From positions 10,353,892-10,373,891 of the forward strand of contig NC_057749.1 of the NCBI RefSeq assembly GCF_004010195.1: DNA of 20,000 nucleotides. The letters are read 5' to 3'. The notes below the pieces were generated by a model. The model saw nothing but the letters and a program-made list of their open reading frames with translations, was not told the DNA's origin and made no database searches. The position numbers were made by a program, and so were the translations under genes. Below are positions 3,624 to 12,545 of the stretch, in pieces. Source of the stretch: Chiloscyllium plagiosum (Eukaryota). How positions within the stretch are numbered: the first letter of the stretch is position 1; every line of letters begins with the position of its first letter.

Positions 3624-4141
3624 TTGTTGATATTTATTCTTCGAGGGATTGGAGGACCAACATAACTAAATTCAAGTGAAGTCTACATTCTCCTCAGTTG
3701 AGCGGTTATTTTAAAAATGATGTTCTGTAGGTTTGAAATGTTTTGCTCGACTTACCCTTGAAGAGCTCAACTAGATCGTGTTGGGCCAATGAGCTTATGT
3801 GTTGTACATGGTTCTTTGGAAGCAAAGGGGCTAATGGAACAAGTAAGATTTTCCTCAATAATTCTCATCTTCATCTGCCATTCAGACTCTGAGAAGTTGC
3901 ATGGGTACTAATGTCTTGATAAATCTTTGTAGGGTCAGACAGTCATATTCTACCAAGTGAAGAACGTTGAGGGATTTGGATAGCACCAAAGGTAGATGTA
4001 TTCTTCTATGATTAAGACAGAATACTATAATGAGGTGGGAGTGGGGAAGCAATGGCCTAATGGTATTCAAAATTTGTGAGAAGATTTGTAGCTCGGGTGC
4101 TTGTTGTTGTGGTTCTGTTCGCCGAGCTGGGAATTTGTGTT

Positions 4142-4181
4142 GCAGACGTTTCGTCCCCTGTCTAGGTGACATCCTCAGTGC
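4142..4181 (-). ncRNA. Minimal type I hammerhead ribozyme (intact core)
   Basis: RNA: GCA CUGAGGA U GUCACCU-AGAC-AGGGGAC GAAAC GUC^ UGC. Conserved core, stem II, palindromic ACGU stem III and stem I GCA/UGC are all present. Confidence 0.8.
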
Positions 4182-4603
4182 TTGGGAGCCTCCTGTGAAG
4201 CGCTTCTGTGATCTTTCCTCCGGCATTTGTAGTGGTTTGAATCTATCGCTTCCGGTTGTCATTTCCAGCTGTCCGTTGCAGTGGTCGGTATATTGGGTCC
4301 AGGTCGATGTGCTTATTGATTGAATCTATGTATGAGTGCCATGCCTCTAGGAATTCCCTGGCTGTTCTCTGTTTGGCTTGTCCTATAATAGTAGTGTTAT
4401 AGGACAAGCCAAACAGAGAACAGCCAGGGAATTCCTAGAGGCATGGCACTCATCCACAGATTCAATCAATAAGCACATCGACCTGGACCCAATATACCGA
4501 CCACTGCAACAGACAGCTGGAACTGACAACTGGAAGCGGCAGATACAAATCACTATAAATGCCGGAGGAAACATCACAGAAGCGCTTGACAGGAGGCTCC
4601 CAA

Positions 4604-4643
4604 ACACTGAGGATGTCACCTAGACAGGGGACGAAACGTCTGC
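4604..4643 (+). ncRNA. Minimal type I hammerhead ribozyme (intact core, weakened stem I)
   Basis: CTGAGGA at 4607-4613, GAAAC at 4633-4637, GTC at 4638-4640. A at 4604 (G in the other arm) shortens stem I. Confidence 0.75.
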
Positions 4644-5080
4644 AACACAAATTCCCAGCTCGGCGAACAGAACCACAACAACCTAATGGTATTATCCTGC
4701 TATGCCACAATGTGGCATTTGAATTAAAACAACGTCTCTAATTAAGAATCTAATAATGACCATGAAGCCATTGATGATGTCTAGTTCACGCTGGGGAAGG
4801 AAACTGCCATCTTTACCTGTTCTGGCCTATATGTGACTCCAGACCCACAGCAATGTGAGTCTTAACTGTGTTTGAGGCAATTAGGGATGGGTAATAACTA
4901 TTGGTCTAGCCAGTGAGGACCATGTCTTGTGAATGAATTTTTTAAAAAGTAGTAGCGTTGAATGTTGAAGGGGCTTTGGCTCGGAAACTCAGTTCCATGC
5001 GTACAATTTTCAGGCATTGAAATGGCCTGCTATGCTGCCATTATGGCAGGATTGAAAATTCTCTGCCTGCCATATTACAT

Positions 5081-7010: not shown

Positions 7011-9000
7011 AGAATGTAGAACATAGAACATAGAACAATGCAGCGTAGAACAGGACCTTCGGCCCTCAATGTTGCGCCGACCTGTGAACTATTCTCAGCT
7101 CGTCCCCCTACACTATCCCATCATCATCCATGTTCTTATCTAAGGATTGTTTAATTCTCCCTAATGTGGCTGAGTTGACTACATTAGCAGATAGGGCATT
7201 CCATGCCCTTACCACTCTCTGCATAAAAAACCTGCCTCTGACATCTGTCTTAAATCTATCACCCCTCAATTTGTAGTTATGCCCCCTCATACACGCTGAC
7301 GTCATCATCCTAGGAAAAAGACTTTCACTGTCTACCCTATCTAATCCTCTGATCATCTTGTATGTCTCTATCAAATCCCCTCTTAGTCTTCTTCTTTCCA
7401 ATGAGAACAGAACAGACTCCAATCCCTCAGCCTTTCCTCATAAGACCTTCCCTCCAGACCAGACAACAACCTGGTAAATCTCCTCTGCATGTTTTCCAAT
7501 TCTTCCACATCCTTCCTGAAATATGGCGACCGGAACTGTACACAATATTCAAATGCAGCCGCACCAGCGTTTTGTATAGTTGCAGCATGATATTGCTGCT
7601 CCGGAACGCAATCCCTCTACCAATGAAACCTAACACACCGTCTGCCTTCATAACAGTACTATCAACTGGGGTGGCAACTTTCAGGGATCTATATCATGGA
7701 CTTCAAGATCCCTCTGCACATCCAAACTACGAACAATCTTTCCATTGGCCCAGTACTCTGCCTTCCTGTTATTTTTCCCAAAGTGAATCACCTCACATTT
7801 ATCTGCATTGAACTCCATTTGCCAACTCTCAGCCCAATTCTGCAGATAATCCAACTTCCCCTGCAACTTGCAACATTCTTCCACATTGTCCACTACTCCA
7901 CTGACTTTAGTGTCGTCTGCAAATTTACTAATCCATCCACCTATGCCTGCTCTCGAAGTCATTTATAAAAATGACAAACAGCTGTGGTCCCAAAACAAAT
8001 CCTTATGGCACACCACTAGTAACTGGACTCCAGACTGAATATTTTCCATCAACCACCACTCGCTGCCTTCTTTCAGAAAGCCAATTTCTAATCCAAACTG
8101 CTAAATTACCCTCCATCCCATGACTCTGCATTTTCTTCAACAGCTTACCATGAAGAACCTTATCAAAGGCTTTACTGAAGTCCATGTATACCACGTCAAC
8201 TACTCTACCCTCATCTATATGCGTGGTCACCTTCTCAAAAAACTCAATGAGGTTTGTGAGACACGACCTGCCCTTGACGAAACCATGTTGACTATCTGAA
8301 ACCAAATTGTTGCTTGCTAGATGATTATAAATCTTATCTCTTATTATCCTTTCTAAAACCTTTCCTACAACAAACGTAAGGCTCACTGGTCTATAATTAC
8401 CTGGTCTATAATCATCTCTACTGCCATTCTTGAATGAGGGTACGACATTTGCAATCCTCCAGTACTCTGGTACCAAACCTGTAGACAATGACGACTCAAA
8501 TATCAAAGCCAAAGGCTCTGCTATCTCCTCCCTAGCTTCCCAGAGAATCCTTGGATAAATCCCATCCAGCCCAGGGGACTTATCTAATTTCACTCCTTCT
8601 AGAATTGATAACATCTCTTCGTAACTAATCTCGATCCTTTCTAGTCTAGTATTTCATATCTCATTCTTCTCCTTTACAATATTCTCCTTTTCCTGAGTGA
8701 AAACCGATGAGAAATGTTTGTTTAGTACCTCTCCGATTTCTACAGGATCCACACTCAACTTCCCACTTCTGTCTTTGACTAACCCTATTCCTATCCTAGT
8801 TATCCTTTTATTGCTCACATACCTATAGAAAGCTTTATGGTTCTCCTTTATTCTACTTGCTAAAGACTGCTCGTGTCCTCTCTTTGCTCTTCTTAACTCT
8901 TTCTTTAAATCCTTCCGAGCTGATCTGTAACTCTCCATTGGCTCATCTGAACCATCTTGTCTCATCAACACATAAGCCTCCTTCTTCCGCTTAACAACTT
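7011..9000 (-). mobile_element. 5'-truncated CR1 LINE (HER1-like) with disrupted ORF2 reverse transcriptase
   Basis: ORF pieces KSPGLDGIYPRIL, NYRPVSLT, QHGFVKGRSCLTNLIEFF, DVVYMDFSKAFDKV, SGVP*G, FADDTK, WQMEFNADKC and SLERRRLRGDLIETYK. The (GTTCTAT)n tail is at 7011-7036. Contains stops and frameshifts. Confidence 0.97.
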
Positions 9001-9127
9001 GCACCTCAAGTCCCTTTTAAATCTTTCTCCTCTCACCCTAAACCTATGCCCTCTAATTTTGAACTCCCCTACCCAGGGGAAAACACCTTGCTATTCACCT
9101 TGACTATGTCCCCCATGATTTTATAAA
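9001..9127 (-). mobile_element. CR1 host copy, part 2 (continuation of 6785-7010)
   Basis: GCACCTCAAGTCCCTTTTAAATCTTTCTCCTCTCACC...GATTTTATAAA continues the sequence as in the uninterrupted copy at 16440-16565. Confidence 0.8.
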
Positions 9128-12069: not shown

Positions 12070-12545
12070 CAGTGGGAATACAGGAGCAGGAGTATACAGG
12101 AGCAGCCCTGCTCTACCATTCAGTATGGTCACAGCTGATCATGCAAATCAGTACCTCTTGTTGTTCACTGGATATGGGCAGCATTGGCGAGGCCAGCATT
12201 TATTGCTCATTCCTTACTGCCCAGACAGTAATTAAGAGTTGATCTGTGGGTTTAGAGTCACATGCAGGCCAGATCAGGTAAGGACAGCCATTTCCTTCCT
12301 ACAAAGACATTAGGTTCTTCCTGACAATGAAGAGCTATTTCATAGTCGTTATTTGACTCTTAATTCCAGTTTTTTCCATCGTTTACCATGCAGAATTTGA
12401 TCCCGAGTCCCAGAACTTGACCTGATCCTCTGGATTAATAGTCTAGCAGTAATACCACTAGGTCATCACCTCCTCCATGCTTATCCCCCACTCCCTCCCT
12501 GTAAACTTGATCCCTTTAGCCCTAAGAACTATATCCAACACCTTG
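12070..12545 (-). mobile_element. CR1 3' tail split by SINE 12161-12473
   Basis: AGGAGCAGGAGTA...CCTGCTCTACCATTCAGTATGGTCACAGCTGATC, then after the SINE CTTGATCCCTTTAGCCCTAAGAACTATATC. Confidence 0.65.
12161..12473 (-). mobile_element. tRNA-derived SINE, same family as 4043-4948
   Basis: GCCAGCATTTATTGCTCATTCCT...GAGTCACATGCAGGCCAGA...AATACCACTAGGTCATCACCTCC is the reverse complement of that family. Confidence 0.8.

Follow-up and report, generated by a model that had tools for sequence, protein, structure and literature searches.

An inverted double copy of a Penelope-like element inserted into an old SINE of Chiloscyllium plagiosum, and the possible origin of its two arms

The stretch of DNA analyzed here, hereafter called the window, comprises 20,000 nucleotides (nt) of the genome of Chiloscyllium plagiosum (contig NC_057749.1, positions 10,353,892 to 10,373,891, forward strand), and all positions below are given in window coordinates. 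At 4068–4681, it contains an insert of 614 bases that has the form of a hairpin-shaped inverted double copy. This insert is very probably the result of one dead-on-arrival insertion of an endonuclease-positive (EN+) Penelope-like element (PLE) of the Penelope/Poseidon type, which entered the head of an old tRNA-derived short interspersed element (SINE) and in which both target strands served as primers. Differences between the two arms coincide to a large extent with sites that are polymorphic within the family, which suggests that the arms may derive from two family lineages.

According to passages of the review by Craig et al. (2021, PMC8557442), the defining features of EN+ PLEs are a reverse transcriptase (RT) with a C-terminal GIY-YIG nuclease, units in tandem, partial copies in inverted orientation, and a tail on one side only. 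The combination of an inverted, 5'-truncated PLE copy with a one-sided tail of 30–40 bp was reported by Evgen'ev & Arkhipova (2005) and by Arkhipova (2006), according to the corresponding part of that review, and also in passages of Arkhipova et al. (2013, PMC3846280). The fold-back architecture is therefore the published signature of PLE integration, and as such it is already known and ordinary. A two-lineage origin of the arms goes beyond the literature examined; in the passages on PLEs examined, we found no statement that inverted PLE arms stem from different templates.

Anatomy of the insert

The inverted repeat consists of the segments 4103–4388 and 4397–4682, which are 286 nt long, 95% complementary, and separated by 8 nt. 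They differ by 13 mismatches and no insertions or deletions, and all the mismatches are located at arm indices 78–228, so that the outer 78 and the inner 57 positions are identical. The 12-mer CCTAATGGTATT is present as an exact direct repeat at 4056–4067 and 4682–4693; the inverted repeat stops at these two copies without any outward extension, and base 4682 is common to the right arm and to the right copy of the duplication. The left duplication is separated from the left arm by a further 35 nt (4068–4102). The initial annotation, made from the sequence of the window, had described a single insertion in the form of an inverted double copy, with arms of this length, spacing, and mismatch number, identical inner and outer segments, and a 12-bp target-site duplication (TSD). 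Alignment reproduced each of these points exactly, and the duplication surrounds the whole unit, an arrangement shared with other fold-backs of the family.

The same annotation had referred to an 8-nt loop, and this description holds for the spacing but not for the nature of the sequence. The reverse complement of the centre TAGTAGTG, namely CACTACTA, is found directly upstream of q1 in most of 29 other printed copies (q denotes positions of the element unit, the right arm being q1–q286). The centre is thus element sequence rather than a mere spacer, and it belongs to the left arm, which is 8–10 nt longer than the repeat alone would indicate. The left arm spans q321 to q-8 (q-10 if the shared TT is counted) and the right arm q1 to q286; the two abut directly, with a TT microhomology at their junction. 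Folded as one RNA strand, the 638 nt form a single hairpin of -559.5 kcal/mol (z = -73 relative to 20 shuffles). The features of the locus are the following, with ORF denoting an open reading frame:

4056–4067, unstranded: left target-site duplication CCTAATGGTATT, an exact repeat; the matching stretch is single in SINE paralogs that retain the head, and its 3' end (...ATT) would mark the top-strand nick.
4068–4102, minus strand: the PLE tail of 35 nt (q287–q321), present on the left arm only; family copies end at q~286 or q~321.
4103–4396, minus strand: left inverted arm, q286 back to q-8, including the 8-nt centre at 4389–4396.
4145–4178, minus strand: minimal hammerhead ribozyme motif (core C3 to C17) in the left arm, recognized by a pattern search and by comparison with features given in passages of PMC4209133; helix I of 3 bp (4142–4144 with 4179–4181).
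4397–4682, plus strand: right direct arm, q1–q286, without tail, ending in the AC-rich RT-start region; 97–98% identity to 39 other scored copies.
4398–4625, plus strand: coding remnant of the GIY-YIG endonuclease, the last ~72 codons (IGQAKQRTAREFLEAWHSS...TEDVT) with the stop codon TAG at 4623–4625, read against ORF ends and good to about one codon.
4607–4640, plus strand: minimal hammerhead motif of the right arm, with a predicted cut after C4640 and a helix I of 2 bp owing to the A at 4604.
4613–4681, plus strand: start of the PLE ORF, first 23 codons MSPRQGTKRLQHKFPARRTEPQQ, with the ATG at 4613–4615 as A9-U-G10.1; the same frame is present on the left arm and continues to the RT in copy L059.
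4682–4693, unstranded: right copy of the target-site duplication, an exact direct repeat.
4694–4947, plus strand: body of the old tRNA-derived SINE that served as the target, 76% identical to a paralog over 4717–4947.

The parent family

The assembly searched comprises 3.56 Gb. The right arm, used as a query, gave at least 1,790 first-look candidates, and the 40 that were scored are 97–98% identical to it, while a 367-residue ORF fragment extending from the RT to the start of the endonuclease gave at least 57,659 first-look candidates, 111 of which were scored. In longer copies, an ORF with the Pfam domain RVT_1 (32.2, 33.3, and 29.8 bits; cut-off 29.6) is located upstream of the arm sequence. 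This RT-bearing ORF ends with NVVYKIPCKDCTKHYIGQTGRQLTIRIHEH...REFLEAWHSS...INKH...TEDVT*, and the motifs visible in its C-terminal domain (VVY...C..C...YIG...R...HEH...E...N) are those of a GIY-YIG endonuclease with a CCHH motif. In L051 and L059, the 321-nt end recurs as direct repeats at a distance of 2,503 nt, and a piece corresponding to q211–321 is found upstream in L050, so that a partial tandem arrangement with pseudo-long terminal repeats (pLTRs) is present. Runs of N (154–2,684 bases) interrupt the longer copies L049, L053, L057, L058, and L060, and no complete uninterrupted ORF of the family was found among the fetched stretches.

Two results count against the assignment of the C-terminal domain to the GIY-YIG nucleases: the Pfam GIY-YIG profile has no match on the family's own protein at E <= 1, and the E-values of the structure matches described below are all weak (>=0.18). 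Searches of PDB sequences with the ORF and with the endonuclease profile gave nothing significant. The assignment is supported by more distant relatives. A profile built from ten natural copies of the domain retrieved 6,996 of them; PF01541 (GIY-YIG) matches at E <= 0.001 in 10 of 43 short relatives, and in ten long relatives RVT_1 is present at E <= 0.001 in nine (eight of them above the Pfam cut-off), with PF01541 at the matching place in four (three above the cut-off). The AlphaFold2 model of the domain, based on a deeper alignment, has a mean predicted local distance difference test (pLDDT) value of 90.1, and its best Foldseek matches among PDB structures are all GIY-YIG nucleases (T4 EndoII, I-TevI, UvrC, and Hpy188I), as exemplified by I-TevI 1ln0_B (prob 0.99, TM 0.62/0.73, root-mean-square deviation 2.5). 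An earlier prediction from a shallow alignment (pLDDT 45.1) was discarded. Feature-level neighbours in the ESM Atlas, which we treat as a lead only, carry RVT_1, HTH_animal, and GIY-YIG on 47% of members in one cluster.

Taken together, an RT, a C-terminal GIY-YIG domain, tandem units with the 2,503-nt spacing, inverted partial copies, and a one-sided tail identify the family as an EN+ Penelope-like element, in agreement with the Penelope-like identity assigned to the insert at the outset.

Fold-backs across the family

The arrangement found in the window is common among its relatives. In a first sample of 30 loci found with the right arm, the window included, 14 are fold-backs, and every one of these 14 has exactly one tail; a duplication of 6–15 bp, in some cases with one mismatch, surrounds the whole fold-back in about 12 of them. 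A 90-nt query taken from the centre revealed 7 further fold-backs with a junction within q-14..q11, where the tail rule is clean in 5 and an own duplication of ~10–13 bp is present in 6. The lengths of both arms and duplications vary from copy to copy. The possibility that fold-backs sharing the junction of the window are daughters of one fold-back was rejected, as their duplications and marker haplotypes differ.

Inverted termini enclosed by a target-site duplication are also what a fold-back DNA transposon, or a miniature inverted-repeat transposable element, with 286-bp terminal inverted repeats would display. We give this explanation practically no credence, since the arms are the coding 3' end of an element with a reverse transcriptase, they are unequal, with a tail on one of them, and neither their lengths nor those of the duplications are constant between copies.

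Several side observations concern the end points of the copies. The 5' ends of simple copies and the inner ends of fold-back arms pile up within ~25 nt around q-10 (L001, L004, L025, L028, L075–L081). A short, discrete RNA of the element might begin here, or the RT might have a strong tendency to stop. The recurrence of the junction near q-10 is a hint of a discrete short template RNA. In 5 of the 14 fold-backs (L008, L015, L018, L020, and L023), the inner end of the inverted arm is located at q143–157, a second preferred stop. At the opposite end, the target bases adjoining the tail in the window (4062–4067; reverse complement AATACC) share five of six bases with AACACC, the sequence that follows the tail in the tandem element, and flanks adjoining the tail begin with AA in 8 of the 11 that were read among the 14 fold-backs. 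Such a match could reflect either a target preference or microhomology at priming.

Lineage markers and the origin of the two arms

If 13 mismatches were distributed at random, their confinement to the central part of the arm would have a probability of (151/286)^13 = ~2.5e-4. The clustering results from the combination of six private changes with seven sites that are polymorphic in the family. The private changes (five in the left arm, one in the right; positions 4245–4246, 4262, 4328, 4331, and 4588) correspond to ~1% private change. At the remaining seven positions (q115, 135, 149, 154, 160, 176, and 208), both alleles are common in the family, and only q115 and q135 involve CpG. Sites 104, 113, 149, 154, 160, and 176 are strongly linked (Fisher p down to 2e-6), which indicates that they are inherited lineage markers and not recurrent hits. 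At q149/154/160/176, the left arm carries the haplotype T-C-C-G and the right arm A-T-T-C, and both recur at other loci. Because 7 of the 13 mismatches are such linked markers, the arms appear to have differed already at the time of insertion rather than being copies of each other. We therefore consider it somewhat better than an even chance that the two arms come from two source lineages of the family, both nicked strands having been primed on separate template RNAs, possibly within a dimeric ribonucleoprotein.

The principal alternative is that the second arm arose by snap-back, in which a cDNA reaching the 5' end of the RNA near q-10 would fold on the 2-nt match and copy itself, the endonuclease would trim the tail boundary, and the differences between the arms would be acquired later. 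Self-priming of this kind has been proposed for inverted PLE junctions in a passage of PMC3846280, and the tight junction of the window, with its 8 nt and TT microhomology, is compatible with it. A number of family-wide results also weigh on the side of snap-back and against two templates. Arms of the same fold-back are more alike at the markers than arms from different loci (differences in 41/138 versus 736/1806 comparisons, permutation P 0.003), the same is true of the non-CpG markers (27/98 versus 576/1286), and by our tally ~11 of 23 fold-backs show no non-CpG marker difference at all. Moreover, the independent insertion L076 has the same junction as the window (q-10 versus q1) with a different duplication, as would be expected of snap-back.

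Nevertheless, the marker differences argue against simple snap-back self-priming in the window. Seven of its 13 differences are pre-existing alleles, at least four of them in linked haplotypes found at other loci, and the chance that seven or more of 13 random later mutations would hit the 14 polymorphic sites among 286 with the specific base is ~5e-10. Only two of the seven sites are CpG. Roughly half of the 23 fold-backs show marker differences between their arms (tally). The clustering of simple-copy 5' ends between q-5 and q-110 means that near-equal lengths of two independent short cDNAs are not very unlikely. Mis-polishing of a high-copy repeat might in principle create marker differences and would then undermine a two-template origin, but it is unlikely because both arms carry coherent minority haplotypes. 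On balance, we regard snap-back as an improbable explanation for the window; the family may make use of both routes, or a single source locus may often supply the two RNAs.

The haplotypes are also partly mosaic, as many combinations occur among 43 arms despite the strong pairwise linkage. Such mosaicism would fit frequent template switching between RNAs used together.

Proposed course of the insertion

The anatomy, the family, the duplication, the tail rule, and the marker differences are observed, whereas the order of events and the use of two RNAs are what we infer. The GIY-YIG nuclease would place a nick in each target strand, the two being 12 bp apart and that of the top strand following ...GGTATT. 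From each target 3' end, cDNA synthesis would then begin within the element RNA, for which a pair of neighbouring internal start sites is available; the top strand would use the distal site and give rise to the arm with the 35-nt tail, and the bottom strand would use the proximal site and give rise to the arm without it. Both cDNAs would stop after ~290–330 nt, at q-10 and q1, respectively. Their 3' ends would be joined via the 2-nt TT/AA microhomology and each completed on the other, which would leave a head-to-head inverted duplication within the 12-bp TSD. In such a course, neither arm would be a copy of the other; each would have had its own template, a separate RNA or a separate template region.

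Inversions are also known from other retroelements. In L1 twin priming, cDNA synthesis starts from the 3' ends of both target strands during a single event, and neighbouring non-overlapping segments of one RNA become inverted relative to each other. By analogy, priming from both target 3' ends with an inverted segment as the product would be common to L1 and the window; in contrast to L1, the two arms in the window both begin in the 3' start region of the element itself and overlap along their full length, which results in an inverted duplication.

Relative to canonical EN+ PLE units, the window shares the head-to-head inverted pair, the duplication around the unit, the tail at one end (35 nt here), the heavy 5' truncation, and a parent element containing an RT along with a C-terminal GIY-YIG nuclease. 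It differs from them in that no full-length body is present between the arms, both copies being cut to ~290–330 nt, and in that the non-coding "pLTR" is almost nil, as the stop codon of one ORF and the start of the next are located inside the hammerhead and the arms are mostly coding.

The closest experimental parallel is PAc, the Poseidon element of Anolis carolinensis, studied by Frangieh et al. (2024, PMC11167929). As described in passages of that paper, the PAc ORF starts at stem II of the hammerhead, with C3 and G8 before the ATG and the cut 26 bp after it; in vitro, two adjacent internal RT start sites are used, both target strands are cut and extended, and cleavage occurs preferentially after ATT. 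In the window family, the predicted cut is likewise ~25–28 nt past the ATG, and insertions terminate at either of two positions in an AC-rich stem-loop; these are separated by 35 nt and located 72 and 107 nt into the ORF, compared with 111–118 nt in PAc. Judged from the sequence, the nick would also follow ATT (the top-strand end is ...GGTATT), and both target strands were apparently extended. The two systems differ in host and family, and the window element is known from sequence alone. In addition, the window target shares five of six bases with the template past the tail, whereas the passages of PMC11167929 stress the lack of homology between start site and target.

Arm content and the hammerhead motif

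The arms, treated in the initial annotation as pLTR sequence, are not a non-coding pLTR. On the sense strand, q1–q229 encodes the last ~72 residues of the endonuclease, including a near-invariant Glu and Asn; ~230 of the 286 nt of the arm thus code for the end of this domain, and the beginning of the next ORF occupies the outer 70/107 nt. The TAG stop codon is located in loop 2 of the hammerhead, and the ATG of the next ORF, where stem II begins, corresponds to A9-U-G10.1. In the tandem copy L059, the frame opened by this ATG (MSPRQGTKRLQHKFPARRTEPQQ...) continues into an N-terminal domain and the RT. Both family end points (q~286 and q~321) lie inside an AC-rich loop closed by AGCUCGG/CCGAGCU.

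The motif CTGAGGA-T-GTCACC(TAGACA)GGGGAC-GAAA-CG-TC is found once per arm, at 4607–4640 on the plus strand and at 4145–4178 on the minus strand. The hammerhead core C3-U4-G5-A6-N7-G8-A9 ... G12-A13-A14 ... U16.1-H17, represented by CTGAGGA ... GAAA ... TC, is found in each of the two arms, and 9 of 14 older copies have it as well. Helix II (GUCACC/GGGGAC) consists of 5 pairs and an A.G mismatch with a 6-nt loop, the palindromic ACGU (15.2–16.2) replaces helix III, and the traits of PLE minimal hammerhead ribozymes (min-HHRs), namely an extra U between 9 and 10.1 and the pair G10.1-C11.1, are both found. The first arm mismatch (4181/4604) falls in helix I, so that the left copy has three helix-I pairs and the right copy two. 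In the 14 older copies, changes occur only in loop 2, the helix III CpG, and the flanks; no stem position varies, the family being too uniform for covariation.

Passages of Cervera & De la Pena (2014, PMC4209133) describe metazoan PLE min-HHRs with an extra base 9/10.1, G10.1-C11.1, a long helix II, ACGU, and a very short helix I, all of which recur here, and pairs of motifs 100–700 bp apart on opposite strands are reported there as well. According to the same passages, the authors needed a special descriptor to find these motifs, and the cleavage activity of published PLE min-HHRs is poor, being limited to dimers or to the presence of protein (passages of PMC4209133 and PMC11167929). The window family differs from those motifs in its uniformity, which leaves no covariation, and in having no Rfam match. 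The initial annotation had placed a hammerhead ribozyme on each strand and had named Infernal with Rfam models and RNAfold as checks. The outcome is divided: one minimal motif per arm is confirmed, and the full 638 nt fold into a single hairpin, but two results speak against an active ribozyme. Rfam hammerhead models gave no match at the gathering score, nor at E <= 10, on 751 nt or on 81 nt, and minimum-free-energy folding and cofolding of the 52-nt motif, as monomer and as dimer, produced no hammerhead fold, a GACG/CGUC hairpin being preferred. The free-energy result is uninformative either way for a protein-assisted, dimer-type ribozyme. Because of these two negative results, we classify the hammerhead as a motif that conforms to the published PLE type and occupies the homologous position, a putative ribozyme whose recognition depends on the features described in PMC4209133 and on its position.

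The suggestion that the hairpin masks its own hammerheads was supported in part, as the computed hairpin energies would lock each hammerhead with its antisense in a 286-bp duplex in a read-through transcript. It is very unlikely, however, that the hairpin is a working RNA device, whether a self-masked or regulated ribozyme pair or a double-stranded or microRNA-like precursor processed by ADAR or Dicer. The extreme stability of the hairpin would suit such a role, and Rfam microRNA-precursor models match near the centre, although at best with 59.4 bits against a gathering score of 100. All 13 of these matches are far below the gathering score and symmetric on both strands, as expected of generic matches to a long stem; the hammerhead fold is unfavoured even in isolation; and the insert is one of many independent dead copies with locus-specific arm lengths. 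It lacks a reverse transcriptase, an evident promoter, and a full ORF, of which it holds no more than the first 23/35 codons. In a single-cell polyA run (X23), 0 reads were found in the ~6% of the run sampled, which is too little to test expression. Nothing suggestive of a function was seen, and the insert is a dead copy, in which the hammerhead motifs are intact because it is young (~1% private changes).

Support from sequencing reads and age

Contigs of two public runs cross both junctions between the flanks and the element. One of these runs comes from a relative with ~2% flank divergence (6 flank differences), so the insertion predates that split, in agreement with the ~1% private change of the arms.

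Two read-level results are unfavourable to the hairpin as assembled and would be expected if the inversion were an artefact created in assembling a high-copy repeat: the hairpin centre is spanned by no short-read contig, and in run X1, whose kind is not on record, a 4,239-nt contig joins 4082 to 4665 with 2-nt microhomology, skipping 4083–4664, so that the hairpin is almost exactly lost. This joint may represent a deletion allele or a jump of a polymerase or RT over a real palindrome, and a near-exact hairpin deletion is the product expected of these enzymes on such a template. An artefact is also hard to reconcile with the exact 12-bp duplication at the outer ends, with the 13 differences between the arms, with two independent runs crossing both outer junctions (one of them into the tail that only the inverted arm carries), and with the 13 other fold-backs of the first sample and the 7 found by their junction, which share the architecture and mostly have duplications of their own. 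We consider it highly improbable.

The target SINE and its surroundings

The right flank of the insert is an old repeat with 1,705 first-look candidates, 40 of which were scored (73–87% identity). In 5 of 9 printed SINE paralogs, the matched body is preceded by a tRNA-like head of the form "tggcctagtggtattatcactgg", and in paralogs with this head, the counterpart of the 12-mer is single and uninterrupted. The insert lies ~20 nt into the SINE, whose first ~20 nt are found at about 4047–4067, left of the insert. The interruption of an older SINE, as initially described, is therefore confirmed by paralogs that keep an uninterrupted head. A genome-wide search with the left flank gave one candidate, the window itself; no paralogous empty site of the whole locus was found, and the SINE paralogs serve as the sole stand-ins.

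Relative to paralogs L037–L045, the SINE of the window is missing ~55 nt of the tRNA-like region ("actggact...ggttcaa"), the gap starting 3 nt to the right of the right duplication (4694–4700). This old SINE family is represented in the window by another copy, a fragmentary one, at 12170–12447 on the minus strand, with 75–76% identity to paralog L042. Elsewhere in the window, at 8003–9016 on the minus strand, two adjoining open frames of 216 and 120 aa have the look of a remnant of a reverse transcriptase of the long interspersed element (LINE) type (GLDGIYPRILWEAREEIAEPL...HGFVKGRSCLTNL).

Significance

As an object, the insert carries little weight, since dead PLE fragments like it number in the tens of thousands in this repeat-rich genome of the shark type. 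It is a clean teaching example, in which a TSD, a one-sided tail, two RT start sites, an ATT nick, and a hammerhead motif lying over both a stop and a start codon are gathered in 640 bases. The linked markers inside the arm allow fold-backs of this family to be used for testing whether an inverted arm is a self-copy or an independent cDNA, a question left open in the passages of PMC3846280, PMC8557442, and PMC11167929. If true, the two-lineage origin of the arms would provide evidence from natural insertions for two-strand priming from separate template RNAs in Penelope-like elements.

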